A stretch of DNA of 64,000 bases from an uncultured Acidobacteriota bacterium (GTDB taxonomy: Bacteria > Acidobacteriota > Vicinamibacteria > Vicinamibacterales > UBA2999), in contig OY970174.1 of the NCBI GenBank assembly GCA_963707795.1, positions 1,179,359 through 1,243,358 of the forward strand, in the 5' to 3' direction. Shown here in pieces: positions 17,047 to 56,175 of the stretch. A program made the translations under genes and the position numbers. Numbering within the stretch: the stretch's first letter is position 1; each line of letters begins with the position of its first letter. The notes under the pieces are model-generated. The model did not search any database. It was not told the DNA's origin and worked only from the letters and a program-made list of their open reading frames with translations.

Positions 17047-17052
17047 CCCGCC

Positions 17053-18469
17053 ATGCGCCTGTTCAATACCCTCACGCGCCAGGAGGAGACGTTTGCGCCG
17101 CTGCGCGACGACACCGTCCGCATGTACACCTGCGGCCTGACGGTCTACGCGCGCGGCCACATCGGCAACTTCCGCACCTTCGTCTGCATGGACGTCCTCC
17201 GCCGCACGCTGCGCTACGTGGCCGGCTGGCGGATGCGCCACATCGTCAACTTCACCGACGTGGACGACAAGACGATTGCCGGCGCGCAGCGCGAAGGCGT
17301 GTCGCTGCGCGAGTACACCGATCGTTACATCGCCGCGTTCCACGAGGATGCGGCGGCGCTCGGGCTCGAGCCGGTGGAGGAGATGCCGCGGGCGACCGAC
17401 CCGGAGAACCTCGCCGCCATGGCCGAGGTCATCCGCGCCCTCGAGGCGCGCGGCCACACCTACGTGAGCGACGGATCGATCTACTTCAAGATTGCCACGA
17501 TGCCCGAGTACGGCAAGCTCGCCCGGCTCGATCACGACGGCATGCAGGCCGGCGCGCGCGTGGATTCCGACACCTACGGCAAGGAGGACGCCCGCGACTT
17601 CGTGCTGTGGAAGGCGACCAAGCCCGGCGAGCCCACCTGGGACGTGCGGCGTCGGTCCCGGCCGACCCGGCTGGCACATCGAGTGCTCGGCGATGGCGCT
17701 GCGGCTGCTCGGCGAGCCGCCGATCGACATTCACGCCGGCGGCATCGACCTGATCTTTCCGCATCACGAGAACGAGATCGCGCAGAGCGAGTGCGCCACC
17801 GGCACGCCGTTCGCGCGCTTCTGGGTGCACGTCGAGCACCTGCTCGTGGACGACGCAGAAGATGTCGAAGTCGCTCGGCAACGTCTACACGCTGCAGGAC
17901 CTGACCGAGCGCGGCCACCGCATTTCGGCGCTGCGCTACCTGCTGCTGTCGTCGCACTATCGCAAGCAGCTCAACTTCACGTGTCAAGGGCCTCGAACAG
18001 GCGGAGGAGTCGCTGACCCGGCTCACCGACTTCCTCGCCCGCATCGACGCGGTGTCCGCGGGCGAGGCGCATCCGGCGATCGCCGACCGCGTGCGGGAGG
18101 CGCGCGCCGCCTTCGACGAGGCGCTGGGCGCCGACCTCAATACCGCCGCCGGGCTGGCCGCCGTGTTCGATCTGGTGCGCGTGGTCAACTCCGCCATCGA
18201 CGCCCGCGAGTGCAGCGCGGCCGACGCCGCGGTGGTGACCGCCGCGTTCGACTCATTTCGACCGCGTCCTCGGCGTGCTGTCGCTGCGCCGTGCCGAGGA
18301 CGAGCGGCCGCCGGTGCCGCTCGAGGAGATCGAGGCGGCCATCGCCGCGCGGCGGGACGCGCGCCGGCGGCGGGATTTCGCCGAGGCCGATCGCATTCGC
18401 CAGGCGCTCGCGGGCCGCGGCGTGCTGCTCGAGGATGGCCCACAGGGAACACGATGGAAACGGAAATGA
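17053..18469 (+). pseudogene. cysS: Cysteine--tRNA ligase, split over five frame segments by four +1 shifts as sequenced
   Basis: Segment 1 (17053 to about 17643): MRLFNTLT...TCGLTVYARGHIGNF...KPGEPTWD. Segment 2 (to about 17855): [16 protein letters not shown]...[12 protein letters not shown]...VEHLLVD. Segment 3 (to about 17988): [15 protein letters not shown]...HYRKQLNFT. Segment 4 (to about 18255): [12 protein letters not shown]...AAFDS. Segment 5 (to 18469): [16 protein letters not shown]...GTRWKRK-stop. The HIGH-like and KMSKS motifs are both present. Confidence 0.9.
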
Positions 18470-19814
18470 AGAGCGACACGCACGATCGGCAGACCTCCGT
18501 TCCCGAGATCAAGACCGCGCTGCCCGGACCACGGGCGAAGGCGCTGATCGAGCGCGACGGCGTGGTCGTTTCTCCGTCGTACACCCGCTCCTATCCGTTC
18601 GTCATGGCGCGCGGGCAGGGCGCGGCGGTCGAGGACGTGGACGGCAACGTCTTCCTCGACTGCGCGGCGGGCATCGCCGTCAACTCCACCGGGCACGCCC
18701 ATCCCGACGTCGTCGCCGCCATCGTGGAACAGGCGGGGAAGTTCCTCCACATGTCGGGCACCGACTTCTACTACGAGCCGCAGGTCCGGCTGGCGGAGGC
18801 GATGAACGAACTGGCGCCGTGGCGGGGGCCGAAGCGGTCGTTCTTCTCCAATTCGGGGACCGAGGCGATGGAGGCGGCCCTCAAGCTGGCGCGCTACTCG
18901 ACCCGGCGGACGGGCGTGATCGCGTTTCTCGGCAGTTTTCACGGCCGCACGCTCGGCTCGCTGTCGCTGACCTCGAGCAAGGCGATCCAGCGCAAGGGCT
19001 TCGGCCCGCCGCTGGCCGGCGTCTATCACGCGCCGTTTCCCAACCCGTATCGCCAGCCGGCGGGGCAGAGCGGGGAGGCGTGCGCCGCGGCGACGCTGGA
19101 CTACATCGAAGAGCAGATCCTGGTGCACCTGGTGTCCCCGGACGAAGTCGCGGCGGTCGTCGTCGAGCCCATCCAGGGCGAGGGCGGCTACGTCGTGCCG
19201 CCGGTCGAGTTCCACCAGCGGCTGCGGGCGTTGACCAGCAAGCACGGCATGCAGCTGATTGCGGACGAAGTGCAGTCGGGCATGGGCCGGACCGGGAAGA
19301 TGTTCGCGATGGAGCACTTCGGCGTCGAGCCGGACATGGTGACGGTCGCCAAGGGCATCGCGTCGGGGCTGCCGCTGGGCGTCACCACGGCGCGCGCGGA
19401 CGTGATGACGTGGCCGCCGGGATCCCATGCCAGCACGTTCGGCGGCAATCCCGTGTGCTGTGCGGCGGCACTGGCGACGATTCGGCTGATTCGCGGATCG
19501 CTGATGGACAATGCCGCAGCGGTGGGTGAACACATGATGGAGGCGCTCCGCGCGCTGCAGGACAAGCACCGGCTGATTGGCGACGTGCGCGGCAAGGGGC
19601 TGATGATCGGCATCGAGCTGGTGCGCGATCGGCAGACCAAGGAGCGGGCGCCGCAGGAGCGCGATCGCCTGGTCGAGGAGTGCTTTCGCCGTGGGCTGCT
19701 GGTCCTCGGCGCCGGCCGGATACCCTGCGACTGTCGCCGCCCCTGCTGCTGACGCGGGCACAGGCGGACACCGCCGTCGGCATCATCGACGCGTCATTGA
19801 CCGCCATCGGCTGA
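18454..19814 (+). CDS. Class-III PLP-dependent aminotransferase (GabT/ArgD-like); C-terminal 30 aa displaced by a 1-nt deletion near 19721
   Basis: Starts at ATG 18454 (METEMKSD) inside ORF 18052..19752. Contains [38 protein letters not shown] and TVAKGIASG. The expected end [30 protein letters not shown]-stop (19812-19814) is in the -1 frame. Confidence 0.88.
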
Positions 19815-32023: not shown

Positions 32024-32833
32024 CTACCGCCGCCGGCCGATTATCCGGGCGACCCGGATGGCCAGCGCCGGGTCGTCGGTCTCGATGCCGTCCACGCCGC
32101 CCTCGATCAACCGCCGCATCGTCGGCTCGTCGTTGATGGTGTAGGCGTACACGGGCATCCCTCTGGCATGCGCGTCGGCGATGAATGCAGGCGTCGCGTT
32201 GGGGATCTCGAAAATGGTGACCCCGGCGGCCTTTACCTCACGGAAGTAGCCCTCGTCCCAGCTCGCGGGCGCTCCCTCCGAGAGCAACAGCGTGACGTCC
32301 GGCAGGTGACGCGCGAAGTCTGCCCGTTGCGCGCCGTCCCAGGTGCCGAGCATGACCGCGCCGGGCGGAGTGCCGGTCGCGCGCAGTTCGGCCGCGATGG
32401 CGCTGCCCAAGCCATCGACGGGGACGTCGAGCAGCAGGCGCCCCTTACCGCGCGCGGCGTGCAGCGCCTCTGCCAGCGTCGGAACCCGCTCGCCGGCGAA
32501 GCGGGCATCCTTCCAGGATCCGGCATCGAGCGCCTTGAGCTCCGCCAGCGTGAGCTCGGCGATTGCTCCGTGGCCGCTCGTCGTCCGATTGACGGTTTCG
32601 TCGTGCATGACGACGAGGGTACCGTCGCGAGTCAATCGGATGTCCAGCTCGACGACGTCGCTGCCGGCTGCGAATGCCGAGTGCAGCGACGCGATCGTGT
32701 TCTCCGGCGCGTCCACCGGGTTGCCGCGATGGCCGATGACAATCAGGGGCGCCGCTGGGGGCGGTGCTGGTGCACATGCGACGAGGGCCGCGACATTTGC
32801 CAGCGCGGCCGCGGCCAGTCGCCGGAGACTCAT
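32024..32833 (-). CDS. Glycerophosphodiester phosphodiesterase (GDPD) family lipoprotein
   Basis: 269 aa with a signal/lipobox ...AALVAC and VIGHRGNPVDAPENTIASLHSAFAAGSDVVELDIRLTRDGTLVVMHDETVNRTT. Its start overlaps the upstream stop (ATGA). Confidence 0.88.
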   Translation of the reverse strand: MSLRRLAAAALANVAALVACAPAPPPAAPLIVIGHRGNPVDAPENTIASLHSAFAAGSDVVELDIRLTRDGTLVVMHDETVNRTTSGHGAIAELTLAELKALDAGSWKDARFAGERVPTLAEALHAARGKGRLLLDVPVDGLGSAIAAELRATGTPPGAVMLGTWDGAQRADFARHLPDVTLLLSEGAPASWDEGYFREVKAAGVTIFEIPNATPAFIADAHARGMPVYAYTINDEPTMRRLIEGGVDGIETDDPALAIRVARIIGRRR

Positions 32834-34624
32834 CCTGACGCTCCGGCGAATGCGCGGGAAAGGAGCGACGGGGCCGCCGCCGCATTCGCGGGACCGATCT
32901 CGAGACGGGGGAGCAGCAAGCGCTCAGTACCGACGCCGACGACCCCCGGTTCGACGGTCACTGCGCGTGCGAAGCCGCAGACGCGGGCGGCCTCGACCGT
33001 CTCGCGGCTGTACTCGCCGTACGGGTAGGCGAGATTGTCGACCGGCTGACGCAACGCTCGCTGCAGCGCCACCTTGCAGTCGGCCATTTCGCGGACTTGG
33101 ACCTCGTACGGCTGGCGGGGCAGACATAAGTGATGCACCGTATGCGCGCCGATGTGGTGGTCCGGCTGCGCCGACAGCCGGACGGCCTCGTCAACCGTCA
33201 ACGTGCGATGCGAGGGCCGCGGCGACAGGTCGAGGCCGCTCCAGTCGCACACCCGGTCGAGCAGGGCGCGACGGGCGTCGGCGGGCAGCGGATAGGCCGC
33301 TTCCATCAGCGCGCGATGGGTCGCCCGCCGTTCCGCCTCGGTGGTTGTGCCGCGCACCAGGGCGCCGTCGCCATGGACATCGAGGGTGGGCGGCAGCGGC
33401 ACACCGGTGAGCAGCGCGCGTTCGAGTAAATCCCACCATGCCTCGTGGGCGAGGTCGAAGCGGTCGGTGTTGAGGTAGAACGTCGCCGGAATGCCGTACT
33501 CAACGAGGATGGGCGAGACGACCGTGAGGTGCTCGAGATACCCGTCATCGAAGGTGACCGCCACCGCGCGTGCGGGCAGCCGCCCCTGGCGTGCGGCTTG
33601 GACGAGATCGCCGAGCGCCATCGGCTGACACTCGTCCCGCACGTGGCGCATGTGCTCGCGAAAGACGCCAACATCGACGCACAGGTCGTGAACGTCCGGC
33701 TGGCGCGCCCCGACGCGGTGGTACAGCAGCACCGCGCCGCTGGGGCGGGCGTGCACGGCGCGCGCATCCAGAACGAGCCCCGGCGGTTCGGCGCTCGCGG
33801 CGCTGGTCGCCGGCGGCTTCACGGCGCGGACGCAGCAGATCAGCGGAAAGGCACGGTCGGTGTCGTCGAGAGCGCCGGCCGGCACTTCGCCGGGGTCCAG
33901 TCCGAGGAGGAACGCCGCGCACACCAGCACGTTGCCGTGCGTGGTGACTTCCACCGCCTCCACCGGAAAGGCCTCGGCCATCACCCTGCGAATCGACGCC
34001 TCGGTGAAGCGCCAGAAATCGCCATTGTCGAGACCGCCATCCTCGAACGAGATCCGACTCACGCACGGCACCGTGCACAGCAGCACACCGCCCGGCCGGA
34101 GGACGCGGAATGCCGTGGCCAGGACGGCTTGGATGTCATAGATGATGTGCAGGGTCTGGGTGAGGACGAAGCAGTCATAGGCCGCGGATGGGATCGCCCC
34201 TTCGCCGTCGGTCAGGTCAGCCATGATCGTCGCGGCGGCATTCGAGGTATCGACATCGATCACGTCGGCATGGGTCACGCGCGCGGCGCCGAAACGAGTC
34301 GTGTAGTACGCGTCCTTCACTTCGAGCACGCGGCCGCTGATGTCCTGGTGATGCCGCTCCAGAAAGCCCTCGATGTATGTACCGATCCAGCGGCCGGCCG
34401 CGGTCGAGTCCCCAGACCGGGCTGACAGGAGAAGTGCGACGAAGGTCCCCCCAGTCCAGCGCCGCACGCCCGTTCGCCTCGAGTTCGGCCGTCGCTGCCT
34501 GCAGCGCGGTACTCAGGTCGGCCAGGGACTGCTCCAGGCGGGACCGCTGCCCGAGCAGGTGGCGCTGATGCGCGCGCTGCTCTTCCAGGAAGCGATCCTT
34601 CTCAGTCAGCAGTTCGGTGGTCAT
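32830..34624 (-). CDS. Three-module protein: N-terminal coiled coil, class I SAM methyltransferase, NodB-type polysaccharide deacetylase; one 1-nt insertion near 34378
   Basis: ORF 34217..34624 (MTTELLTEKDRFLEEQRAHQ...DWGDLRRTSPVSPVWGLDRGRPLDRY) joins ORF 32830..34467 (YIEGFLERHHQDISGRVLEV...CFVLTQTLHIIYD...RPGGVLL; then VAVTFDDGYLEHL...PATFYLNTD...GAHTVHH). Removing one base restores DRYYIEGFLE, matching the paralog's DRYYIEQFLE. Confidence 0.82.
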
Positions 34625-35307
34625 CTGCGCGGTCGGCGGCGGATGGCGGCGATGGATCGGCTCATGGTTTCGACGTACGGCCCCCGGAGAATCGCCCGAC
34701 GGTAGCGGGACGACGGGCGCACCCGGTAGCGGAGCAGGGGCTCGGGCACGACCTCGCCGCGCAGCCCGCGCTCGATCGCCGACAGCCAGAAATCCAGGTC
34801 CTCATAGCCGGTCAGGCCCTCGTCGAACCCACCCACCGCCTGCCATAAATTCCGGCGGAACATCGTCGAGACGTGCGGCCCTCCGCGCACGAACGTCTGC
34901 ACCCAGGTGCACGGCGGCGGCGTCCACACGTAGCTGGCGTCACCGAAGGCCTCGATGCCGGTGGTCACGAAATCGAGATTGGACCGCTCGTCGAGCAGGC
35001 CGGCCAGGCGCGCGAGATACTCGGCGTGCAGCGCGTCGTCGGCGTCGAGCAGGACGATGTACGGCGAGTGGGTCAGGCCGACGCCCAGGCCTCTGGCCGC
35101 GGCGACGCCGCGGTTCGGAGTTCGCACGACGCAGGTCCCGCGTCGGGCCTCCGCCGCCAGGGCCCACTGCGTGTGCGGGTCGTCCGAGCCGTCGTCGACG
35201 ACGACCAGCTCGGTGGCCGGCCGCGTCTGCCGGTGTACGCTGTCGAGCGCCTCGGCGATGAAGCGCCCGAGGTTGTGGCACGCGATGACGACGGCGATGG
35301 GTGTCAT
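34621..35307 (-). CDS. Family 2 glycosyltransferase
   Basis: 228 aa with IAVVIACHNLGRFIAEALDSVHRQT, ELVVVDDGSDD, VLLDADD and GGFDEGLTGYEDLDFW. Confidence 0.88.
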   Translation of the reverse strand: MTPIAVVIACHNLGRFIAEALDSVHRQTRPATELVVVDDGSDDPHTQWALAAEARRGTCVVRTPNRGVAAARGLGVGLTHSPYIVLLDADDALHAEYLARLAGLLDERSNLDFVTTGIEAFGDASYVWTPPPCTWVQTFVRGGPHVSTMFRRNLWQAVGGFDEGLTGYEDLDFWLSAIERGLRGEVVPEPLLRYRVRPSSRYRRAILRGPYVETMSRSIAAIRRRPRR

Positions 35308-35319
35308 CGGAGCCGCCCG

Positions 35320-36773
35320 CTATTTCCGGGCGCGAACAGAAACGAGCGCCGGAAAATACGGATTGTGCGTTTCGAACTCGTGCGGGGTGAGCTCGTGACA
35401 GGCGAGACCGTACAGGAAGGCGATATTGACGAGCACGTTGCCGTACGCCCGCACGTCGAGCCGGTCGGGTGCGAAGCACTCTTCGAACAGGCGGCGGGCG
35501 GCCGCCGGCGCGAACCGCCAGAAGTCCCCATCTGGTCCCTGCTCCGGCGCCAGCCGGCTGGCGAATGGCAGGGTCGCGAGCAGCACCCCGTCCGGCTTCA
35601 GAATCCGCGCGCACTCGCGCAGCACCGCCCGCACGTCGTAGATCACGTGCAGCGTCTGCGTGAGGATCACGCAGTCGTAGCTGTCCGAGGCGATAACGTC
35701 GGCGCGGCGCAGGTCGGCGGAAATCGTCGCGCGCTGGTTCGTGGGATCGATATCGAGCACGTCCGACCGCACGACGCGACTGCCGCCATAGGCGCGGGTG
35801 TAGTCGTCGTCGTGCACTTCGAGCACGTCGCCGTGCACATCGGCGGCGTGCGCCTCGAGAAACTGTTCGATGTAGTAGCGGTCGATGCAGCGGCCGCGAT
35901 CGGCGCCCCAGTCCGTGCTGATGGGGGTCAGCCGCGCGAAGTCGCCCCATTCGAAGCGAGAGCGGCCGGTGCCCAGCAGCGCCGCTGCGGCCCCGGCCAC
36001 CGCGGCATCCGCTCGCTGTTGCTCCTGTTCGCCGGCGCGCAGCCGTTCGCGCAGGGCGGCCTGCGTGCGCCGCATCTCCTCGAGGCGCCGTTCGCGCCGG
36101 CCCAGCGCCGCCGCCGCGTGTTCCGCAAACAGGGCACGGTGGCGGGCGAGGGCGGCCGTCAGGCCGGCTGACGCCGATGCGCCCCCTGGCGCCGGCGCCG
36201 AACGGCGCACCAGGAGCGGTTCGTCGACGGCGATGCCGCGCCCCCCGGCGGCGAGGACGCGAATCCAGAAGTCGTAGGCGACGTGTTGCTCGAGATCCTC
36301 CGCAAAGCCGCCGGCCTGGTCCCAGACGTCCCGGCGGAAGAGCGTGGCCGGATGGTACGAGATCGGGATCGCTCAGCACGGAGGACAGCGACACATCCGG
36401 TGCGTCCGGCCGCAGGGTCATGCCGCCCGGCCATCGGCTCCCGGTGGTGACGAAGGCGGCCGACTCGGCCGCCGCCCAGGTCGAGGCGACGTAGCGCGGC
36501 GCCAGCGCGTCGTCCGGATCGAGGAGGCCGATCCAGGCGCCGCGACTGGCGCGGACGGCGGCGTTGAGCAGGGCCCCCTGGCGCCCGTCCTCGCCGCAGA
36601 CGACCCGAACGCCGCGCCGGGCGATGGCCTGTCGCTGCCCCGAGGCGAGCAACCGTGGCGGGGCCTCGATCATCACCACCTCGTGCGGCGGCAGCGTCTG
36701 GCCGAGCGCACTGTCGATGGCGTTCAGCACCTGCGCGCCGGTGCCGACGATCGACAAGCGACAACGAGGTCAT
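35320..36773 (-). CDS. GT2 glycosyltransferase - coiled coil - class I SAM methyltransferase fusion; 1-nt frameshift near 36355
   Basis: The N-terminal part lies in ORF 34940..36757 (SIVGTGAQVLNAIDSALGQT...LLDPDDAL). After the shift it reads YHPATLFRRDVWDQAGGFAEDLEQHVAYDFW...LLV, continuing into ORF 35320..36210 (coiled coil RRERRLEEMRRTQAALRERLRAGEQEQQ, then FEWGDF...DRYYIEQFLE...VILTQTLHVIYD...KPDGVLL). The start is either in-frame TTG 36757 or ATG 36773; the latter makes an ATGA overlap with the upstream stop but would need a second indel. Confidence 0.78.
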
Positions 36774-37835
36774 GGCTGGCCGGCGGTGAGGCGCATCACC
36801 AGATTGTGCACCGCGCGCAGCGGCGCCGTCAGCCGCCAGCTCCGCGACCGCCGCAGGCCCGTGACCTCCGCCGACGCCGCTGCGAGCGCTGCGGCGGCGT
36901 CGTGCAAACGCCTCTCCAGCTCGGCGACACGGGTGCGGGCGATGCGCTCGGCCTCGACCTGACGCAGCTTCTCCTGCAGACCCTCCAGCTCCTCCTGCCG
37001 CCGCGCGACGAGCGGCTGGAGCGAACCCGTGATCTCGCGCTCGATGTCGTCGTTGGCGCGGAGCAGGTCGGCCACGTCACCGTCCTTGCGCGCCAGGACT
37101 TCCGGCAGATGCGCCTGGTAGCTCGCGTGATGCTTCTCGATCAGGTAAGTCATCAAGGCGAGGTGGACGTCGCCGCTGCAGCAGGTCAGGCTCATCGAGT
37201 CGGGGCGGCGGCGGTAGCGGAACAGCACTTCGGGAATGATGGCACCGGCGTAACCCCGGGCGACCAGGGAGATCCACAGGTCCCAGTCCTCGTAGCCCTG
37301 CGCCGGCATGCCCTCGTCGTAGCCGCCCACGGCCAGCACGGCGGAGCGGCGCACGATTGCCGCGGTGCAGACCGTGCATTCGGCGAGCAGCGTGGCCAGG
37401 TCGCAACGGTGTTGGCGCCACACCCAGCTCTCGTCGCCGAAGGTTTCCAGCCAGCTCGAGACGAATGCCACCGACGGGTCGGCCTCGAGGATTGCGCTCG
37501 CCTTGGCGAAATAGTCGGGGAGCAGTGCATCGTCCGCATCGAGCGCACAGACGTAGCGGCCGGTGGCCGACTGGATGCCGAGGTTGCGGGCGGCGGCGAG
37601 GCCGCGGTTCGCGGTGGTCAGCACGCGGGTCTTCGGCCGCTGGAAGTCGCGCAGCAGATTGTTGGTCGCCGGATTGGTGGACCCGTCGTTGACCACGATG
37701 ATTCTCGATGTCGTCGCAAGTCTGGGCGAGGGCGCTGTCCACGGCCTCGCCGACGAACGAACCGAGGTTGTAGCAGGGAATGATGACCGATATTTTCGGC
37801 GGCGCCATCCGGTTCCTGTCCTCGTCGTCGCCCAT
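36770..37835 (-). CDS. GT2 glycosyltransferase with C-terminal coiled coil; 1-nt insertion near 37702
   Basis: ORF 37077..37835 gives MGDDEDRNRMAPPKISVIIPCYNLGSFVGEAVDSALAQTCDDIE. ORF 36770..38035 continues IIVVNDGSTNP...ALDADDAL...GGYDEGMPAQGYEDWDLW. A coiled coil follows (REITGSLQPLVARRQEELEGLQEKLRQVEAERIARTRVAELERRL), ending in RSRSWRLTAPLRAVHNLV. Confidence 0.82.
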
Positions 37836-39241: not shown

Positions 39242-40592
39242 ATGACGACCCGTCGCCGCCGCGGCCTCGGGTGGGTGTTCGTCCTGGCTTTGCTGGCACG
39301 ATTGCTGTTCATCGTCGTCTTCAGCCTTGACGACCCGGCACGCCTGCAGCGAACCATCGGCAGAGACGGGACCGAAATCGGCCGCATCGCGGTCAACCTG
39401 TCCGAGGGTCGGGGCTACAGTTCGCCGTTCGATGTTGGCAACCAGCCGACCGCGTGGGTGTGTCCCGCAGTCCCCGCCCTCTGGGCCGCGATCCTGATCG
39501 TCGCCGGCGGTGACACGCCCGAGGCCATGCTCGCGGTGTGGCTGTCGCAGGCACTGGCGAGCAGCCTGGCGGCGGTGTTCTACGTCGCCAGCCTGCGGCG
39601 CGTGCTGCCGGTGCCTCCCGAGAGTTTCGGGCTGACGTGGTGGGCGCTCACCGTCGGTACTCTGGCCGGAGTCGATTCTGCGGATCACCGAACTCTGGTA
39701 CTACACCTGGCAGGAGCTGGGGGTCGCCGTTCTCGTGTGGCTCGGGATTGCGTGGCACGAGAATCCCAGCCGCAGGAACGCGGTACGGCTTGGCGTGGCC
39801 GGCGGCGCGGTCGCACTGGTCAACATCACCCCGCTGCCGGTGTTCCTGCTGGCCCTCGGACGGCCGCTGGTCGGCCGGGTGGCCGCGGGCGTCCGTGCTC
39901 GGGCGGCCCTGGCAGTCGGAATCGCGGCTCTGATGGTGACTCCGTGGCTGGTGCGGAACGCCATCGTGTTCGGATCGCCGGTCCTGCTGCGCGGCAACGC
40001 CGGCTTCGAGCTCTGGCAGGGCAACAACCCGCGGGCCGCGATCCGGCAGACCAGCGATTCGGTGCATCCAGGGATCGACGGGCGTGAACTGCGGCGGTAT
40101 CAGGAGATCGGCGAGGTGGCCTACAACCGCGAGAGCTTTGCCCAGGCGATCGACTGGATGCGCCTGCATCCGCGGCAGGTCGCCGTCAACGCCGCGGCAC
40201 GGGTTTACGTGACCTGGTGCACGGACCTGACGGATCGCTGGTCATGGGACGGGCGGCCATGGTGGACGATGGCGCACATCGGGTGGTTCGTCATCGCGCG
40301 TCAGGTGAGCTCGTCGGCCACGGCGGTCGCGGCGCTCGCTGCCGTGGTGGTCGCGCTGCTGGCGGGAAGCCTGCGCCGCGTGCCCCATGCCGTCCTCCTT
40401 CTCGGCGTGCCGCTCCTGATTCCGCTTCCGCACTATCTGACACAAATCGATCCGTCGTACGTCGCGTTCACGCGTGTGTGGCTGGTGATCATCGCCATCG
40501 CGGCGCTCGCACACCACCGGCGTTCCGGCGCGCAGCCCCACGCTGTCTGGACGCGGGTTGCCGACTCGCGGCAGCACCGGTCGCGGCCATGA
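39242..40592 (+). CDS. GT-C fold membrane glycosyltransferase (PMT_2/ArnT-like); 1-nt insertion near 39670
   Basis: ORF 39242..40087 (LGWVFVLALLARLLFIVVF...DGTEIGRIAVNLSEGRGYSSPF...) joins ORF 39735..40592 (SILRITELWYYTWQELGVAVLVWLGIAWHE..., more TM helices). The protein is polytopic throughout. Confidence 0.7.
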
Positions 40593-42892
40593 GGAGCTGG
40601 GACGTGCCGACGTGGTCCCACGCCGCCCTGTTCGCGGCGTTCCCCCTGGCGCTGTGGCTGAAGCTCGTCATCATCGGTCGCAGCCTCTCGTGCTGCGGTG
40701 CCTTTCCCGAGCACGTGCACCCGCTGAGCGCCACTGCCGCCATCCTGCTGCTGATGACAGCGGTCGTGGTGCGGCTGGCGCCGGTGGCACGGCTCGCCGG
40801 CTGGCTGATCGCCGCTTCCGTGCTGACCACCATCGCGCTCGCCGACCTGGTGTACTTCCGGTTCTTCGGTGACCTGCTGTCGGTCTACGAGGCGGCGGCC
40901 GCCTGGCAGCTGTCGATGGTGCACGCCAGCGTCATCACGGCGCTGCGCTGGAGCGATCTCCTCTACTGGGCTGATGTCGTCCTCGGCCTGAGTGTCGTCG
41001 CCCTGCTCCGGCGTCGGCGCGTCACCGGCCAGGACGCGGGTGCGCGGGCCGGCCGCCGGGCGCAGGCCGCACTCGTCGTGCTCGGTATCCTCTTGCTGCT
41101 GCCGTCGCTGCGCCTGGTGGCGCGCGACCCTGACGGGGTGTTCGAGTACACGATCGGGCGCCGCCAGGTTGTCGCAGCCATCGGCCTGGTGGGTTATCAC
41201 CTGCACGACGCGGCCGCGTTTGTCGTTCGCGACGCGCGCGACCGGCGCGCGGTGGGCGAGACCGGGCGGCAGCGCGTCCGCGAGTCGTTCACGGCGCGGC
41301 AGGCCGCGCGCCACCCGCCGTCGCCGCTGGCGGGCGTCGCCACCGGCCGCAATCTCATCGTGGTGCAGGTGGAATCGCTGCAGGCGTTTGCGGTGGGGCT
41401 GACCATCGAGGGGCGTGACGTCACGCCGCGGCTGTCACAGTTCGCGCGCGAGAGCCTGCATTTCACCAGGTTCTTCGACCAGACCTACGGCGGCGCGACG
41501 TCGGACGCGATCTTCTCGTCGCTGCAGTCGCTGCACCCGCTGCCGGTGGGCGCCGTGGCGACGCGCTATCCCGCCATCCCGTACCGCGGACTGCCCGCCG
41601 TGCTGGGAGCCGCCGGCTACGACACGCTCGCCGCAACCGGGACCCGCGGCGAATTCTGGAATCTGCGCCTGTTGTTGCCCGCCCTCGGATTCGGCCGCTC
41701 GCTGTTTCCCGAACACCTGGAACCAGGCGAGACGTTCGGCCAGGGTTTGTCCGATGCCGACGTGTTTCGCCAGATGCCGCGGCGCCTGGACGGACTGCGC
41801 GAGCCGTTTTTCGGCTTCATCGCATCGGTCTCCAGCCACCATCCGTTCCGCGACGGGCCGCGGAATCCACCGCCGTTCGAGCTCGGCGCCCTGCGCGGGA
41901 CTGAGCTTGGCGGCTACCTGGCGCTCGTGCACTATTTCGACCGCGCATTCGGCACGCTGCTCGACGGCTTGCGCGAATCAGGGCGCTTGGACAGGTCCAT
42001 CATCGTGGTGTACGGCGATCACGAAGCCTTTCTCGAGCAGACGCCGGCCCTGCACCGTCACGCCGGGATTGCCTCCGATGACGGGTTCGCCCGTTGGCGG
42101 CTGCGACATCGCCTGCCCCTCATGGTCCGGCTGCCGAACGGCGCGCACGCGGGCGAGCACACCGTGACGGCCGGGCACCTGGATATCGCGCCCACGCTGC
42201 TGTCGCTGCTCGGCGTCACCGACCGCGGCAGTGTCATGCTCGGGCGAGACCTCACGACCGGCGAGGAACAGCCGGTGGTGTTTCGCAACGGCGGTGTCGC
42301 GACGCGCGACGGGTATGCGATCGTCGCCGACGAGGGGCAGACCTGCTATCGCGGGAGCGCGGTGACAGACTGTGTGGCGCTCGCCGGCGAGCAACGCGCG
42401 GCGGTCGAACGCTTGGAGCTGTCCGATCTCACGTTGCGCGGCGGCATTCCGTGGCCGCTGCCCGCCGGACCGGCGCTGATACGCGCGCGGCTGGAAACGC
42501 TCGCGCCGGCGCACGGCGAGGCGCCCCAATCCGGGGCCGGCACGCCCCTCGTCGGCGGGGACGATTTCGTTTCCCCCGCGCCGAGCGGGAGTTCCTTCGT
42601 CATCGACACCGCGCGTCGCCACGTGAACGTCGCCTTTACGCCGTTCCTGGACGCGCCGGCACGGGAGTCTGGGCCAGGCGGGGTGCTGTTTCAGGTCCTC
42701 GGCGACGGCGCGCTGCTGTTCGAGCGCCTGCTGCGGCCCGGCGAGGCGAGCGGGCCGGTGGTGATGCCGATCGCGGACGGCAGCCGGCAGCAGGTGGTGC
42801 TGACCTTCGTCACCACACCGGGAGGCCAGGGTGCCGGGGGTGGATATCCGTCCGTGTGGAAGGACGTCGCGATCATCGTCGAGCGCCCGTAA
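40589..42892 (+). CDS. LTA-synthase-like (LtaS/sulfatase-fold) membrane phosphotransferase with extra C-terminal beta-rich domain
   Basis: ATG 40589 makes an ATGA overlap with the upstream stop. Five N-terminal TM helices are followed by a sulfatase-fold domain (NLIVVQVESLQAF...GGATSDAIFSSLQSL...SVSSHHPF...VVYGDHEAF). The last ~110 aa are an unassigned domain. Confidence 0.8.
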   Translation: MRSWDVPTWSHAALFAAFPLALWLKLVIIGRSLSCCGAFPEHVHPLSATAAILLLMTAVVVRLAPVARLAGWLIAASVLTTIALADLVYFRFFGDLLSVYEAAAAWQLSMVHASVITALRWSDLLYWADVVLGLSVVALLRRRRVTGQDAGARAGRRAQAALVVLGILLLLPSLRLVARDPDGVFEYTIGRRQVVAAIGLVGYHLHDAAAFVVRDARDRRAVGETGRQRVRESFTARQAARHPPSPLAGVATGRNLIVVQVESLQAFAVGLTIEGRDVTPRLSQFARESLHFTRFFDQTYGGATSDAIFSSLQSLHPLPVGAVATRYPAIPYRGLPAVLGAAGYDTLAATGTRGEFWNLRLLLPALGFGRSLFPEHLEPGETFGQGLSDADVFRQMPRRLDGLREPFFGFIASVSSHHPFRDGPRNPPPFELGALRGTELGGYLALVHYFDRAFGTLLDGLRESGRLDRSIIVVYGDHEAFLEQTPALHRHAGIASDDGFARWRLRHRLPLMVRLPNGAHAGEHTVTAGHLDIAPTLLSLLGVTDRGSVMLGRDLTTGEEQPVVFRNGGVATRDGYAIVADEGQTCYRGSAVTDCVALAGEQRAAVERLELSDLTLRGGIPWPLPAGPALIRARLETLAPAHGEAPQSGAGTPLVGGDDFVSPAPSGSSFVIDTARRHVNVAFTPFLDAPARESGPGGVLFQVLGDGALLFERLLRPGEASGPVVMPIADGSRQQVVLTFVTTPGGQGAGGGYPSVWKDVAIIVERP

Positions 42893-42930: not shown

Positions 42931-44223
42931 TCACGGCCCGGATTGCCGCGGGCCGAAGACGCGATCGTAGACGGCCCGCAACAGGGTCGTCGATCGCCAG
43001 CTCAGCGAGTCGTAGAGCGACTGGATCTGACCACGCGCCGCCACGAGTTCACCCGCCATCACCGCCAATCGATCCGCGTGAACGCCGGCCTGTTGCGCGG
43101 CGTCCCGGTCGCGGGCCTCGAGTGCCGCCTGCAGGCCGGCGATCGCCTCGCCGCCGGCGCGAAGCCGGCTCTCGATGCCGGCCCTGACCTGTTCCTGCGT
43201 CTCGGCGTCGCGCATCAGGCGTGCCACCTCGTGATTCCGCGCATCGAGGTCCCGGGCGAGGCGGGTCACTTCGTGATTGCGGGCGTCGAGTTCGTGCGCC
43301 AGACGCGCCACCTCGTGATTGCGCAGGTCCAGATCGTGGCCCAGTCGTGCGGCATGACGCTCGGCTTGCCCGGCGGCACGCTGCCGCGTCTCCGGCGCGT
43401 CCTCGAGCGCTTCCACGCCGCGATGGCGCAACACGAGGTTCAGCCGGGCGCGTTCCGGATCGTAGCGAGTCAGCGATGCGGCACTGCGGACGAACGTCTG
43501 GCCTTCGGCAAACCGATTGTACTGGCGATGCCACCCGCGCGCGCGCTCGGCGGCGACGAACCGGGGCCGCCGCTCGGCGAAGATCTTGCGCTCGGCGTGG
43601 CGCTGCCCGCGCAGGGGGTAATGCCGCAGCAGGAACCGGATGGGAAACACACGCCGCCCGGAAAAGACCGCTTCGTGACCGCCCGATGACACGAGATCGA
43701 CGGGCAACGCCGTCTGCTTCCAGCACCGGATCTGCAGCTTGTCCCATTCCTGTGCGGGCTCGAAGTACTCAAATGCGGCGCGGATGTCGTCGCCCGCCTC
43801 CTCGCGTGCCTCGGTTGGCCAGAAATTCAGGACCTCGAAGTCGATGGCGTTATAGCCCAGCCGATCCACCCTGGCGATCGCGTCGCGCAAATCGAGTCCC
43901 TCCCACGGCGACTCGCGGAACTCGTCGGCGTCCTGATGCATGAGCCAGTCGGCGTCGAGCGTCCGAGCGAGCTCCTCCTTGCGGCGCAGGATGCGCTCCC
44001 ATTCGTAGGCGGGCGCGCCGGCCTCGTCAGGCGGAAACGGCTCGACCTGCACCATCCCGGCGTCGACGTGCGGCTGAACAGCCGCGGCCGTGCCGTCGGT
44101 GGAGCCGGCGTCGAGCAGATGGACCTTGATGCGCTGCCGCACGAGGTCGTCCACGACCTGGCCGATGATGTCGCGTTCGTTGTAGGCGGCGATAATGGCG
44201 ACGATTCGGCAGTCTGGTTGCAT
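42931..44223 (-). CDS. GT2-like glycosyltransferase with long C-terminal coiled coil containing three tandem 14-aa repeats
   Basis: Starts at ATG 44223 (MQPDCRIVAIIAAYNERDIIGQVVDDL...LLDAGSTDGT...HQDADEF). The coiled coil includes LDLRNHEVARLAHE LDARNHEVTRLARD LDARNHEVARLMRD. The protein ends DSLSWRSTTLLRAVYDRV. The track ORF extension to 44508 is not supported. Confidence 0.78.
   Translation of the reverse strand: MQPDCRIVAIIAAYNERDIIGQVVDDLVRQRIKVHLLDAGSTDGTAAAVQPHVDAGMVQVEPFPPDEAGAPAYEWERILRRKEELARTLDADWLMHQDADEFRESPWEGLDLRDAIARVDRLGYNAIDFEVLNFWPTEAREEAGDDIRAAFEYFEPAQEWDKLQIRCWKQTALPVDLVSSGGHEAVFSGRRVFPIRFLLRHYPLRGQRHAERKIFAERRPRFVAAERARGWHRQYNRFAEGQTFVRSAASLTRYDPERARLNLVLRHRGVEALEDAPETRQRAAGQAERHAARLGHDLDLRNHEVARLAHELDARNHEVTRLARDLDARNHEVARLMRDAETQEQVRAGIESRLRAGGEAIAGLQAALEARDRDAAQQAGVHADRLAVMAGELVAARGQIQSLYDSLSWRSTTLLRAVYDRVFGPRQSGP
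43219..43344. repeat. Three imperfect tandem 42-bp repeats inside the coiled-coil coding region of CDS 42931..44223
   Basis: Units lie at 43219-43260, 43261-43302 and 43303-43344. They share the core g(c/t)cac(c/t)tcgtgatt(c/g)cg. On the minus strand each encodes 14 aa: LD(L/A)RNHEV(A/T)RL(A/M)(H/R)(E/D). Confidence 0.85.
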
Positions 44224-46588: not shown

Positions 46589-47961
46589 GGGGCGGCGGCG
46601 GCCCCGTGACGGCGCGCAACGACACGGGCATAGACCGCCTCCCACTCGCGCGCGTCCTCGTCCATGGCCTTGACCGCCGGTGCCCGCGCACCCAGGCGGC
46701 GCACCAGTGCGGGATCCGCGACCAATCGCTGCAGCGCCCCGGCGAGCGCATCGGGCGAGAACGCGTCGTAGAGAAACCCGTTGACGCCGTCGCTGACCAG
46801 ATCGACGATGCCGCCGCTGCGAGCGCCGATCACGGGAAGGCCGGCCATGAACGCCTCGTGGATGACCAGCGGCGAGTTCTCCATCCACAGCGAGGGCACC
46901 ACCAGGACATCGATCTGGCCGTAGGCCCGGGCGGCACCGGCGGTCTCGAAGCGGCCCATGAATCGCACGGGATACCCCGCGGCGCGCGCGCGCAGCCCGG
47001 CGACGTAGTCAGGGAACACCTCGACGTCGCCAAACAGAATGAGCTCGAACGTGCCAGGCGGCAGGCGCTGGATCGCCTCGACCAGCACGTGCACGCCCTT
47101 GTGCCAGACGAGCGTGCCGACGAAGCCAATCCGCAGCGGCGCGCCGCGAGGCGTCGGGGTCTTCGCCGGGCTCTGCGCGAGCGGCACGAAGCCGTAATCG
47201 GCCACGTGAATCTTGTCGGCGGGCAGGCCGAGCCGGACGTACTCCGCGCCGAGCGCCGGCGACGGCGCGACGAAGAGCGACACGGCGTCGAACACTTCGG
47301 CGACCTTGGCGAGGCGTCGGCGGATGGCGTCCGGGGTCGGCCGCAGCCGTGCGGCTGCCGGCTGGTTCACCCGGGTCAGCAGCCGCGCCGCGCGCGCCGG
47401 CAGCGAGGCCGCGACAGCCGGGACCGAGAGCAGCCGGGCGGCCGGCGTGTGGATGGCCATCTGATGGTGAAACGGCGATTGCGGGAAGCAGCGGCTGCAG
47501 CGATCGACGTCGATCGTTTCGCACACGTGCGCCTCGGCGAGATGCACCCGCTGGCCACCCGATGGGCAGACCAGCGTGTAGTCGTGCAGGGTGGCCACGC
47601 TCGGAATGCCGCGCGCGCGAGCGAGGGCGGGCAGATCCATCGACAGGTTGAGCAGGTTGTGGATGTGCAGGAGGTCCGGCCGGACGTTGTCGAGCACCCG
47701 ATCGAGCTGCCGGTTCAGCCGCGGCGAGGCGTAACTGTGCGCAAAGGCCGGGAAGCGCCAGTTGTTCACGATCTCGACGATGGGGAGCGCCTCGTGCTGC
47801 CGCCAATGCAGCGATCCGTGCCGCCGGCCGCCGTCGTACTCCGCGCACAGAACGTAGATGCCGTGTCGGCGGGCGAGTGCGCGGCACAACTGGAAGGCAT
47901 AAATCTCCGACCCGGCCTGATGGCGGGGGAGAAAATCGTGAATGACGTGCAGGACTCGCAT
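46585..47961 (-). CDS. Family 4 (GT-B) glycosyltransferase
   Basis: 458 aa with MRVLHVIHDFLPRHQAGSEIY, a Cys-rich insert (CPSGG...CETIDVDRCSRC) and PSLWMENSPLVIHEAFMAGLPVIGARSGGIVDLV. It is a paralog of 44294..45644. Confidence 0.88.
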   Translation of the reverse strand: MRVLHVIHDFLPRHQAGSEIYAFQLCRALARRHGIYVLCAEYDGGRRHGSLHWRQHEALPIVEIVNNWRFPAFAHSYASPRLNRQLDRVLDNVRPDLLHIHNLLNLSMDLPALARARGIPSVATLHDYTLVCPSGGQRVHLAEAHVCETIDVDRCSRCFPQSPFHHQMAIHTPAARLLSVPAVAASLPARAARLLTRVNQPAAARLRPTPDAIRRRLAKVAEVFDAVSLFVAPSPALGAEYVRLGLPADKIHVADYGFVPLAQSPAKTPTPRGAPLRIGFVGTLVWHKGVHVLVEAIQRLPPGTFELILFGDVEVFPDYVAGLRARAAGYPVRFMGRFETAGAARAYGQIDVLVVPSLWMENSPLVIHEAFMAGLPVIGARSGGIVDLVSDGVNGFLYDAFSPDALAGALQRLVADPALVRRLGARAPAVKAMDEDAREWEAVYARVVARRHGAAAAP

Positions 47962-48022
47962 CGGGCCCGATCAGCGCGCGCCGGCCTCGGCGACCGCTGG
48001 CCCTGCGATACAATCGAGCGCC

Positions 48023-48817
48023 ATGCTGTCGACGGCGAGCGCGCTGGGATGGGTGGCGCGGCGCGCCCATGGTCGCGACCTGCTGCGCGAGCTGATCGCC
48101 CGCGACCTGAAGCTGCGATACCGCGGCTCGGCGCTGGGCATGGCCTGGACGCTGCTCAACCCGGTGATCGAGCTGCTGGTGCTGCTCTTCATCTTCAGCG
48201 TGGTGCTCCCCGTCGAGATTCCCAACTACTCGGCCTTCCTGTTCACCGGGCTGCTGGTCTACAACTGGTTCTCGTCGGCCCTGATGTTCGCCACCGGCGC
48301 CGTGGTCAACAATCGCGAGCTGATTAAGCGGCCGGGCGTGCCGTTCGTCATCCTGCCGATGGTCACCGTGGCGAGCACGCTGGCCCATTTTATCCTCGCG
48401 CTGCCGGTCCTGTTCGGGTTGCTGCTCGCCAGCCGCATCGAGCTCACCGGCCTCGTTTTCCTCCTGCCGGTCGTCATGGCGGTGCAGTTCGTGTTGACCG
48501 TGAGCCTCGCCTATCCGTTGGCCACCGTCCACGTCTGGTTCCGGGACACCCAGCATTTCCTGCGCGTCGGCCTCCAGCTGCTGTTCTACCTGACGCCAAT
48601 CTTCTACGAGGCCAGCATGATTCCGGAGCGCTGGCAAACGGCCTATCACCTGAACCCGATGGTCTACGTGATCGAGTCCTATCGATCCGTGCTGCTGTAC
48701 GGACGGCCGCCCGACTGGGGCCCGTTGCTGGTGGTGACTGCGATCAGCGGAGGCGTCCTCGCCCTGGCCCTCGCCGCCTTTCGACGCGCCAGCAGCCGAT
48801 TCGCCGACGAGTTGTGA
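48023..48817 (+). CDS. wzm: ABC-2 type polysaccharide/teichoic-acid export permease (Wzm/TagG-like)
   Basis: Starts at ATG 48023 within ORF 47942..48817. Contains LIARDLKLRYRGSALGMAWTLLNPV and six hydrophobic helices. It lies immediately upstream of the ATPase gene, with a GTGA overlap. Confidence 0.88.
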   Translation: MLSTASALGWVARRAHGRDLLRELIARDLKLRYRGSALGMAWTLLNPVIELLVLLFIFSVVLPVEIPNYSAFLFTGLLVYNWFSSALMFATGAVVNNRELIKRPGVPFVILPMVTVASTLAHFILALPVLFGLLLASRIELTGLVFLLPVVMAVQFVLTVSLAYPLATVHVWFRDTQHFLRVGLQLLFYLTPIFYEASMIPERWQTAYHLNPMVYVIESYRSVLLYGRPPDWGPLLVVTAISGGVLALALAAFRRASSRFADEL

Positions 48818-50106
48818 CACCCCCCGCCATCGTTGTCAGCCACGTCAGCAAGCAGTTCCGCCGCTACCACCCGGACCGGCCGTGGACCCTGCAGGAGGCG
48901 CTGGCGCAGGGCTGGCGGCGCCTGCGACCGGTCGAGACGTTCTGGGGGTTGCGCGACGTCAGCTTTACCGTCGGCGTCGGACGCACCGTGGGCATCATCG
49001 GCGCCAATGGCTCCGGCAAGTCGACGCTGTTGCGGTTGATCGGCGGCGTCGGCCGCCCCGACGGCGGGCGGATCGCGGTGCGCGGGCGGATCGGCGCGCT
49101 GCTCGACCTCGGCGCGGGCTTCCACCCGGACCTGACCGGACGGGAGAACGCCGTATTGGCCGGCGTCCTGGCCGGGCTGACGCGCGAGGAAGTAATGGGA
49201 CGCCTGGACGCGATCGTCGCGTTTGCCGAGGTCGAAAAGTTCATCGACAACCCGCTGCGCACCTACAGCACCGGCATGCAGATGCGGCTGGCGTTCTCGA
49301 CCGCGGTGCACGCCGATCCCGAAGTGCTGCTCATCGACGAAGTGCTGTCGGTCGGCGACGTCGCGTTTCAGCGCAAGTGCCTGGATCGGATCGAGCAGTT
49401 CAAGGCCCGCGGCTGTTCCATCCTGCTGGTGTCGCACGAAGCGTCGGCGATTCGCGACATCTGCGACGAGGCCCTGTGGCTGCATGGCGGTCATTTGATG
49501 GCGCTCGGGGCGGCGCCCGAGGTGGTACGGCATTACCTGGTCCACATCACCGGCGGCGAGCCGGCCGCGGAGCTGCTGGACGATGTGCCCGCGCCACCGG
49601 GCGTCAGCCCGCATCCCACCGTCCGCACCCGGGACGGCGCTGAGGTGGTCCTCGACGAGCAGCGCTTCGGTTCGGTGGAACTGCAGATCGCCGACGTGCG
49701 CGTGCTCGAGCATGACGGCCAGCACGCCGGCGACTTCCGCCCCGGCGAGCCGGTAAACATCGAGATCGCGTATCAGGTCACCGAGCGGCTGGTCGGCCCG
49801 ATCTTCGCCGTACGGTTCCTCCGCGGCGACGGCGTCGTCTGCGTGGACCTGAACAGCGAGATGTCGGCGCTCAGCGCGTCGGTGATCGAGGGCGCCGGCA
49901 CCGCCATCCTCCACATCGAGCGGCTCGATCTGGCTGAGGGAACGTACACGATCGACGTCGCCTGCTATGCGAATGGCTGGACCTACGCCTACGACTATCG
50001 CGCGTCGGTCCATACCCTGACAGTTGGCCGCGGCGAACCGACGAGCGCGGTGTTGTCCGCGCCACATCATTGGGAGGTGTCCGGCGTCGAGCAGGCGGAG
50101 CCCTGA
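48814..50106 (+). CDS. wzt: Polysaccharide ABC exporter ATP-binding protein with C-terminal beta-rich (Wzt_C-like) domain
   Basis: 430 aa with Walker A GANGSGKST, signature YSTGMQMRL and Walker B LLIDEVL. The ~170-aa C-terminal extension (VELQIADVRVLEHDG...GEPVNIEIAY...TYTIDVACY) has the size and pattern of Wzt carbohydrate-binding domains. Confidence 0.88.
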   Translation: MTPPAIVVSHVSKQFRRYHPDRPWTLQEALAQGWRRLRPVETFWGLRDVSFTVGVGRTVGIIGANGSGKSTLLRLIGGVGRPDGGRIAVRGRIGALLDLGAGFHPDLTGRENAVLAGVLAGLTREEVMGRLDAIVAFAEVEKFIDNPLRTYSTGMQMRLAFSTAVHADPEVLLIDEVLSVGDVAFQRKCLDRIEQFKARGCSILLVSHEASAIRDICDEALWLHGGHLMALGAAPEVVRHYLVHITGGEPAAELLDDVPAPPGVSPHPTVRTRDGAEVVLDEQRFGSVELQIADVRVLEHDGQHAGDFRPGEPVNIEIAYQVTERLVGPIFAVRFLRGDGVVCVDLNSEMSALSASVIEGAGTAILHIERLDLAEGTYTIDVACYANGWTYAYDYRASVHTLTVGRGEPTSAVLSAPHHWEVSGVEQAEP

Positions 50107-56032: not shown

Positions 56033-56175
56033 ATGCGTCAGTGTAATTACCTTTTAGTTCGTTATACGGCGTGATTGGACTATTCTGTCGTAACTATCGG
56101 TGTAAGTTTATCAGGGCGGTATCTGCCTGGCGATGGCTTGGCGATCGCGAGGACAAAATCGCGGATGGGCGACGG
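56033..56175. promoter_or_regulatory. AT-rich divergent intergenic control region between the two largest operons of the glycan locus
   Basis: It is the only clearly AT-rich stretch in the window (gtgtaattaccttttagttcgttatacgg...taactatcggtgtaagtttatcag). It lies between the TTG start at 56032 (minus strand) and ATG 56176 (plus strand). It contains an 8-bp palindrome gtaattac (56042-56049) and an ops-like GGCGGTA at 56115-56121. Confidence 0.55.

Follow-up and report, generated by a model that had tools for sequence, protein, structure and literature searches.

The stopping and measuring of glycan chains in pathways that depend on ATP-binding cassette (ABC) transporters is known from a small number of enterobacterial prototypes. 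In Geobacillus, WsaE, a methyltransferase fused to rhamnosyltransferases, caps the S-layer glycan, and the enzymes NodC, NodB and NodS perform, respectively, addition by a family 2 glycosyltransferase (GT2), de-N-acetylation of the non-reducing terminal residue by a carbohydrate esterase of family 4 (CE4) and N-methylation dependent on S-adenosylmethionine (SAM). A coiled-coil protein that carries the terminator is a marker of the ABC-transporter strategy of glycan assembly; WbdD of the O8/O5 type is methyltransferase-only, and ORF6 of Klebsiella pneumoniae O7 has already been described as a fusion of glycosyltransferase, coiled coil and methyltransferase (PMC11231755). In Pseudomonas syringae, methyltransferase-only terminator candidates lie beside wzm/wzt and are sometimes fused to a glycosyltransferase (PMC7820976). 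Here we analysed three adjacent minus-strand genes, A, B and C, in a 64,000-nucleotide stretch of DNA (the window) from an uncultured Acidobacteriota bacterium (contig OY970174.1), in which glycosyltransferase, helical, methyltransferase and deacetylase modules are combined and which a preliminary description, made from the letters of the DNA, had likened to WbdD and WbbB.

Our tentative reading, which we place a little short of probable, is that the A, B and C proteins act in the cytoplasm to modify, and most likely to cap, the non-reducing end of a glycan exported by an ABC transporter, applying a logic like that of WbdD and WbbB with unrelated proteins. It is built on the domain make-up and paralogy of the three proteins, on the linkage of their family to the transporter genes wzm and wzt, and on fusions within that family.

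Domain make-up and comparison with described terminators

After repair of single-base indels (see below), gene A (36770..37835, minus strand; 354 aa) encodes a canonical GT2 domain with a coiled coil behind it and a conserved motif near the C-terminus; gene B (35320..36773, minus strand; 483 aa) encodes a GT2-like domain that has diverged, joined by a long helix to a methyltransferase; and gene C (32830..35307, minus strand; ~826 aa) encodes a canonical GT2 domain, a helix of 52 residues, a methyltransferase and, at its end, a CE4 deacetylase. The three genes form an operon of overlapping stop and start codons with a fourth and last gene for a glycerophosphodiester phosphodiesterase (GDPD); the ATG of B overlaps the stop codon of A (ATGA), and the start of GDPD overlaps the stop codon of C. 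As had been proposed, A, B and C are clear paralogues, with blastp matches of 43% over 199 aa between A and the GT2 domain of C (E 3e-49), 45% over 264 aa between B and C across helix and methyltransferase (E 9e-63), 32% between B and the GT2 domain of C (E 2e-16) and 27% between A and B (E 2e-10). The shared motifs GGF/YDE, DRYYIE.FLE and LTQTLH.IYD were all found; the methyltransferase is present in two copies, in B and C, rather than in the three first counted. Because orthologues in other genomes are closer (61-80% identity for A, 47-65% for B and 55-74% for C) than the paralogues are mutually (27-45%), the duplication is ancient, and the recent tandem triplication originally suggested was not borne out. 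The B orthologues concerned (P0001-P0008) are 474-503 aa long.

Pfam supported the first domain calls for GT2 in A and C, methyltransferase in B and C and the NodB-type deacetylase in C, and gave only a weak GT2 match for B (27 bits; PF00535 cut-off 23.3). The GT2 domains of A (105 bits) and C (77 bits) have all expected motifs (DDGS for nucleotide binding, DxD, and the catalytic ED), whereas PxYN, DDGS and YED are absent from B and its orthologues; canonical DDGS, DxD and ED are lost in most C-type proteins and in all examined B-type orthologues, and are kept in the C protein of the window. Because WrtF, the GT-A fucosyltransferase of Rhizobium tropici O-antigen synthesis, is active with GAD in place of DxD (PMC12595478), absence of DxD need not make a GT2 domain inactive, and we describe such domains as divergent, not as dead.

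An AlphaFold2 model of repaired C, built with 90 homologues (mean pLDDT 90.4), consisted of a GT-A domain (residues 1-221), a single 52-residue helix (227-278; 34475..34630, minus strand), a methyltransferase (300-496) and a CE4 domain (524-825). In a model of the helix and methyltransferase of B (295 aa), residues 9-79 formed a single long helix of 71 residues (35971..36183, minus strand; pLDDT 74-97). Glycosyltransferase, helix and methyltransferase thus share one polypeptide, much as a glycosyltransferase module, a coiled coil and a terminating enzyme do in WbbB and O7 ORF6, in C according to AlphaFold2 and in B according to Pfam and alignment for the GT2-like part. By a crude heptad score of our own, referred to the 95th percentile of shuffled sequences, segments of A (270-332), B (209-266) and C (238-286) and of a further protein, D, scored above more than 95% of shuffles. 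Helical, heptad-like segments do lie before each methyltransferase, where coiled coils had been proposed. In B- and C-type proteins the distance from the end of the GT2 domain to the methyltransferase hardly changes: of ~50 homologues, drawn from several phyla, 38 have 87 aa between the KH motif and DRYYIE. Such constancy speaks for a structural element of set length and against a ruler that can be tuned.

The methyltransferase domain of B (35326..35886, minus strand), which has the N-terminal extension WGD..WGxDRGxxIDRYYIExFLE and a class I fold, matches the Pfam families Methyltransf_11/12/23; the Methyltransf_11 scores were 36.9 and 28.4 bits (cut-off 21.2), and in both B and C only the second half of the Pfam models aligns, from motif II onward. 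Foldseek searches with the whole C model were dominated by CE4 and GT-A matches, and the helix and methyltransferase were modelled separately. This smaller model matched Coq5, UbiG, phosphatidylethanolamine N-methyltransferase, RebM and AtmM (E ~1e-8, TM ~0.5) and reached a probability of 1.00 with many SAM-bound methyltransferases, placing the domain in the class I Rossmann-like fold. The glycine-rich motif I (E/DxGxGxG) is not present and is replaced by the conserved VLEV(H/Q/K)DxxYTxxFGG, whereas the acidic residues that follow strands 2 and 3 have been kept. Since the SAM-binding glycine loop is non-canonical, methyltransferase activity of B and C is a prediction from sequence rather than a certainty.

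The CE4 domain of C (32833..33738, minus strand; PF01522, Polysacc_deac_1, 75.8 bits) retains the metal and catalytic motifs TFDDG and HxxxH in the family consensus, and its fold matches in Foldseek included PplD (6dq3, E 4e-15) and PgaB. The GT-A domain of C matched a Leptospira GT2, WrtF (E 3e-13), K4CP and TarP/TarS. Scans of A, B and C with Pfam and NCBIfam revealed no kinase family, in agreement with the preliminary description, and NCBIfam holds no family-specific model for these proteins; a weak NCBIfam match to HfsH was recorded.

Gene A has a different anatomy. Its coiled coil of ~60 aa (residues ~270-332; 36839..37027, minus strand, by heptad score) is followed by the motif SWRLTAPLR (36815..36841, minus strand), ~13 aa from the C-terminus. 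Its family consensus, SxSWRxTxPLR, is shared by 101 of the 120 A homologues, in each case close to the C-terminal end. The distance from GT2 domain to tail motif ranges in this family from 135 to 164 aa with peaks at 136, 143, 150, 157 and 164, so that the coil varies by up to four heptads; the seven-residue periodicity holds after filtering to <70% identity (p = 7.5e-5). A catalytic head, a variable coil and a conserved tail are the known layout of a ruler protein, but here the head is a glycosyltransferase. In the window the tail motif (SWRxT..LR) recurs once outside A according to a motif scan, at 42976-43002 in protein D (42931..44223, minus strand), which combines a GT2-like domain (Glyco_tranf_2_4) with a coiled coil of ~130 aa (Pfam GT2 and Tropomyosin). 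The coil of D contains 14-residue repeats LDARNHEVxRLAxx, its tail resembles that of A (blastp E 5e-5), and its gene adjoins GT4 genes and wzm/wzt. If there is any ruler at this locus, the anatomy points to A or D and not to B or C.

Compared with WbdD (Escherichia coli O8/O9a, K. pneumoniae O3/O5), the locus has in common an ABC-transporter pathway, a Wzt with a carbohydrate-binding module (CBM) and a methyltransferase beside a coiled coil. WbdD, however, begins with its catalytic domain, continues into an extended coil and ends in a region that anchors it to the membrane and docks the polymerase. In B and C the methyltransferase comes after the helix, which measures 52-71 aa and is of fixed length; the catalytic domains are followed by nothing further, hence by no anchor, and a kinase domain like that of the O9a/O3 type is lacking. 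Only A shows the order catalytic domain, coil and tail, but its catalytic domain is a GT2. No chain named WbdD, whose solved structures we take to be in the PDB, was returned among PDB sequences by phmmer with B (E<=1) or by a profile of 25 helix-methyltransferase sequences (E<=10), and neither WbdD nor NodS was among the top 50 Foldseek matches of the methyltransferase. Relatedness to WbdD or NodS was rejected because phmmer, the PDB profile search and Foldseek gave only generic class I methyltransferases. These proteins thus stand apart from the WbdD family in homology, in topology and in the kinase domain; what stood of the comparison with WbdD and WbbB is the glycan cluster with Wzm and a Wzt_C-bearing Wzt, the linkage of the family to Wzm/Wzt, the heptad-like segments before each methyltransferase and the fusions in the wider family.

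O7 ORF6 and O12 WbbB are alike in that a glycosyltransferase module and a modifying or terminating enzyme are joined by a helical segment in one protein and that modules are spread variably over several proteins (PMC11231755). They differ in that the domain order is reversed, with GT2 N-terminal in B and C, and in that the helix of B and C is far shorter, the GT2 is often non-canonical, the methyltransferase is of another subfamily, one whose motif I is non-canonical, and CE4 is an addition. The CPA 'TET' operon of P. syringae (wzm, wzt, a WbdA-like glycosyltransferase and a WbdD-like terminator) shares the methyltransferase-only terminator and, in some strains, the glycosyltransferase fusion (PMC7820976), whereas its glycosyltransferase is a GT4-type WbdA and CE4 is lacking; the methyltransferases were compared by description only. 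WrtF, among the best fold matches to the GT2 domain of C, likewise serves a pathway with Wzm and a CBM-bearing Wzt and has a C-terminal membrane helix (PMC12595478), but it lacks a coiled coil and fused modifying domains and is only ~20% identical. The same three activities as are predicted for C are found in the Nod enzymes, there as separate proteins acting on chitin oligomers, with NodS not among our sequence or fold matches. Overall, we see in the locus a variant of what is already known, similar in its logic to WbdD and WbbB, rather than a system of a new kind; for the combination of GT2-type domain, fixed helix, motif-I-divergent methyltransferase and CE4 no characterised member was found.

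Transporter linkage and candidate roles

A protein search with B (E<=1e-5) returned 309 proteins. Among the best 120 of them, 82 are 720-850 aa long and mostly of the order GT2-helix-methyltransferase-CE4 in precomputed Pfam annotation, 20 are 470-560 aa long and mostly GT2-helix-methyltransferase, and 14 are stand-alone methyltransferases of ~270 aa in which the N-terminal helix is still present. The arrangement had been thought undescribed; a scan of species-representative genomes yielded at least 545 loci, and fusions of glycosyltransferase, coiled coil and methyltransferase have been published (PMC11231755, PMC7820976). A profile search of 1.84 billion representatives gave 1652 clusters (50% identity) at E<=1e-30, and members were found in Acidobacteriota, Bacteroidota, Cyanobacteria, Alphaproteobacteria (including Mesorhizobium), Rokubacteria, Planctomycetota, Chloroflexota and others. 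With more than 1600 clusters in at least seven phyla, cultivable Bacteroidota, Cyanobacteria and rhizobia included, the family is large, cross-phylum and experimentally accessible; Segetibacter koreensis DSM 18137, Pontibacter spp., Anabaena sp. 4-3 and Mesorhizobium are among its cultivable carriers. No characterised member was found in NCBIfam or by plasmid tblastn, which returned generic names only (for example, 'methyltransferase domain-containing protein'), and nothing relevant was found in literature on Acidobacteria and on Myxococcus WbgA.

Neighbourhoods were counted at 80 loci of the genome scan (L004-L083) with a reach of 10 kb. Wzm lay within this distance at 46 loci and the nucleotide-binding domain of Wzt at 53, often directly adjacent, and the usual cassette in Acidobacteriota is wzm-wzt(short)-A-C. 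The C-terminal extension of the linked Wzt was >=120 aa in 28 cases and <40 aa in 26. Of the co-conservation that had been anticipated with Wzm and a CBM-bearing Wzt, the transporter part is strong (~60% of the loci) and the CBM part is not, a tail of CBM length being present in only about half of the linked Wzt proteins. In the window itself, Wzm (47942..48817, plus strand; ABC2_membrane, E 3e-16) is followed by a Wzt with a C-terminal carbohydrate-binding domain (48814..50106, plus strand; ABC_tran and Wzt_C, E 7e-19). The top PDB sequence match of this Wzt is chain 8dku_A (E 2e-57), deposited as 'ABC transporter' and presumably the Aquifex O-antigen Wzm-Wzt transporter.

The complete set of A, B and C is seldom seen; it was found in the window, in one metagenome-assembled genome (MAG; L001, which is also L004) and in two near-identical short-read contigs (L084 and L085), with the same gene order in L001 and L084. 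These genomes bear on the idea that A-B-C serves another glycan pathway, through a second transporter or a flippase route, and that its proximity to Wzm and the CBM-bearing Wzt is coincidental. The triplet in L001, the nearest genome that has it, is without Wzm or Wzt within 10 kb and has a Polysacc_synt flippase-like gene nearby; furthermore, the window departs from the typical Acidobacteriota cassette in that its transporter lies 10 kb from A-B-C, has a CBM and is accompanied by its own protein D. We nevertheless consider such a separate pathway improbable, given the strong association of the family with Wzm/Wzt, the unbroken block of glycan genes from ~32 to 64 kb that contains both A-B-C and the transporter, and the C-terminal motif that A and D share.

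Fusions connect the modules to the transporter and to one another. Some metagenomic contigs (proteins P0149, P0160 and P0219; L003, 1335-3179) encode a Wzt ATPase that continues, in the position of the CBM, into an entire A, with coil and SWRxTxPLR tail. A, its tail motif and a methyltransferase are joined in P0058, two helix-methyltransferase modules occur per protein in P0241-P0250 (1100-1260 aa), and in P0272 a polysaccharide pyruvyl transferase domain extends a C-type protein. Both the tail motif of A-type proteins and the fusion of Wzt with A seem undescribed, and the family as a whole is a modular set of domains that modify glycans.

In the capping model, the anciently diverged, co-transcribed cytoplasmic proteins A, B and C would serve as enzymes of a Wzm/Wzt-dependent polysaccharide pathway. 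A would be an active GT2 on a coil of variable length, its conserved C-terminal motif probably docking it at the membrane or the transporter, and the three proteins may come together by way of their helices and work on the glycan while it is still lipid-linked, ahead of export. The residue-adding step would fall to A, perhaps also to the GT2 domain of C; the residue is probably an N-acetyl-hexosamine, from which the CE4 domain of C would then remove the acetyl group, and the two methyltransferases of B and C would give two methylations. The product at the non-reducing end would stop elongation and be read by the carbohydrate-binding domain of Wzt. The non-reducing end is the most likely site because the Wzt of the window has a CBM and a coiled coil with a modifying enzyme is a hallmark of termination (PMC11231755).

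Several observations weigh against this model. The chemistry is known for no family member, and the activity of the methyltransferases is uncertain because of their glycine loop. The GT2 domains of B and most C-type proteins are non-canonical; the helix of B and C is short, invariant in length and N-terminal to the methyltransferase, with no C-terminal or membrane anchor following, and WbdD was not recovered by sequence or fold. About half of the linked Wzt proteins are without a tail of CBM length, the transporter is distant in the window and missing near the L001 triplet, and for the part of ruler or terminator D seems the stronger candidate when set beside B or C.

Part of this evidence favours the main rival, in which internal residues of every repeat are decorated by O- or N-methylation and de-N-acetylation, no cap is made and the helix is an element for dimerisation or spacing. 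A helix of constant length across phyla and a Wzt that often has no CBM would suit such enzymes, as would the gain of decorating domains such as pyruvyl transferase by other members and the presence among the nearest folds of the sugar O-methyltransferases RebM and AtmM together with generic small-molecule methyltransferases. A coiled coil beside a modifying enzyme and tight linkage or fusion to Wzt are, however, typical of termination systems (PMC11231755), and the Wzt of the window has the module that in the prototypes recognises a terminal cap. We regard decoration of each repeat as somewhat unlikely, and if it were all that these proteins do, they would amount to an ordinary, though very modular, set of modifying enzymes.

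The deacetylase raises a further alternative, namely action on the primer or adaptor at the reducing end, by de-N-acetylation and methylation of the first sugars on the lipid carrier. PplD, the top structural match of the CE4 domain, reportedly de-N-acetylates the linkage-unit N-acetylglucosamine of streptococcal rhamnan, and HfsH is said to be a cytoplasmic CE4 acting on lipid-linked sugars; both leads would fit, and the high conservation of the cassette from one phylum to the next would be in keeping with a conserved adaptor. The chance of this is slim, however, since priming transferases are neither fused to these proteins nor regular neighbours of them, methyltransferases are not known to take part in adaptor synthesis, and it is difficult to see what a coiled-coil stalk would be for if the substrate lies close to the membrane.

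Capping of the non-reducing end thus remains the reading that we prefer, and a terminating role of the family is plausible but unproven. If it holds, a widespread chain-capping system exists outside Proteobacteria, de-N-acetylation joins the known capping chemistries, and the Wzt-GT2 fusions are a route to export coupling without a CBM. It would be bolder, and in our estimate rather unlikely, to propose that the helix-methyltransferase(-CE4) family and A-type GT2 proteins form a cross-phylum machine for capping and export coupling, in which the cap is a de-N-acetylated, methylated amino sugar and, where Wzt is without a CBM, tethering of the terminating glycosyltransferase to the transporter replaces recognition of the cap.

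Single-base indels and repaired gene models

Minus-strand coding across 32830-37835, as first described, was confirmed by a frame plot of the G+C content at third codon positions (GC3), which showed continuous coding from 32024 to ~39300 with frame jumps at several points and no stop codons; the window has a G+C content of ~70%. In a three-frame translation, the protein sequence carried on in another frame at each jump. The whole region was compared by blastn with L084, a short-read contig of a close relative that holds an intact A (360 aa), an intact B (486 aa) and a continuous C, and five frame-breaking single-base indels were located, at ~37702 (+1), 36751 (+1), 36354 (+1), 34658 (-1) and 34378 (+1), each an isolated difference in conserved context. 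Three of these had been noted before (near 34378, 36355 and 37702), and those at 36751 and 34658 are additional.

Removal or addition of single bases restored the three open reading frames (ORFs), with no stop codons or other lesions left after correction. The repair of A, the removal of one extra base near 37702, was validated by P0122 (80% identity, 360 aa) and by the DNA alignment with L084; in B, extra bases were removed near 36751 and 36354, and the frame of C is interrupted twice, where a G has been lost near 34658 and where there is one A too many near 34378. C had been described as a split pair, a GT2 ORF (C1, 34621..35307) joined by an ATGA overlap to one for coil, methyltransferase and NodB (C2, 32830..34624). 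This split is an artefact of the missing G: just before the C2 ATG, another reading frame encodes a peptide that can be aligned with orthologues, which are single proteins of 815-832 aa; the junction is uninterrupted in L084 (74% identity over 329 aa, no gaps); and the window is without one G of CCGGAT in the DNA alignment, repair of which gives a junction reading ETMSRIH. Because L084 and the orthologues read through and the window misses one base, C is one gene, and the four called ORFs are really three genes.

The five indels are most likely assembly errors, since the essential gene cysS, for cysteinyl-tRNA synthetase (17047-19752, especially 17500-18350), is equally frameshifted, needing at least four frame changes within ~800 bp, and the close relative has A, B and C intact. 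Programmed frameshifting and real pseudogenisation were both rejected because cysS is affected to the same degree. Decay of the locus into pseudogenes, with all five frameshifts genuine mutations, would account for such a density of breaks within 5 kb and for the truncated A that the deposited source genome, one contig of 5.35 Mb, already carries (P0121, 308 aa), yet it is highly improbable: the GC3 codon bias is unchanged across each break, the corrected genes are free of further lesions, and, besides cysS, another gene of the cluster is probably broken as well (39242-40592, where two ORFs on one strand overlap). Among public genomes the nearest relatives are MAGs that bear MFD names, which we take to be long-read (nanopore) assemblies of a soil survey. 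In practical terms, the assembly carries frequent single-base indels, and ORF calls anywhere in the window are therefore unreliable.

Genes surrounding A, B and C

The block from ~32 to 64 kb comprises, in addition to A-B-C, an SGNH-like protein, two GT-C/PMT_2-like membrane proteins, an LtaS-like protein of the sulfatase family, protein D, five GT4 and two further GT2 glycosyltransferases, Wzm, Wzt with Wzt_C, and an epimerase/dehydratase, a B12-radical SAM enzyme and a sugar C-methyltransferase, consistent with sugar-nucleotide modification. The last gene of the operon, GDPD (32024..32833, minus strand; Pfam GDPD, E 2e-46), has a lipoprotein-like leader, and the neighbourhood C-GDPD-LtaS is also present at loci L002 and L029. 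On the plus strand, a multi-pass membrane protein that is possibly GT-C-like (39242-40592; no Pfam match) is followed by a large membrane protein of the LtaS/sulfatase family (40217-42892). The GDPD lipoprotein, the GT-C-like protein and the LtaS-family protein suggest periplasmic addition of glycerol phosphate to the glycan or its removal.

The block also contains a GT4 of 726 aa with a C-terminal extension of ~300 aa (53873-56053, minus strand) and a PMT_2-like membrane protein of 791 aa (56047-58422, plus strand). The epimerase/dehydratase, which is NAD-dependent, the radical SAM enzyme, which binds B12, and the sugar C-methyltransferase (Methyltransf_13/14) are encoded at the edge of the cluster (58340-63614, plus strand). 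They may point to an uncommon sugar precursor, either branched or C-methylated. Upstream and unrelated to the glycan genes are a homologue of BshC of bacillithiol biosynthesis (3130-4869, minus strand) and a Ser/Thr kinase with PEGA domains (4923-6788, plus strand).

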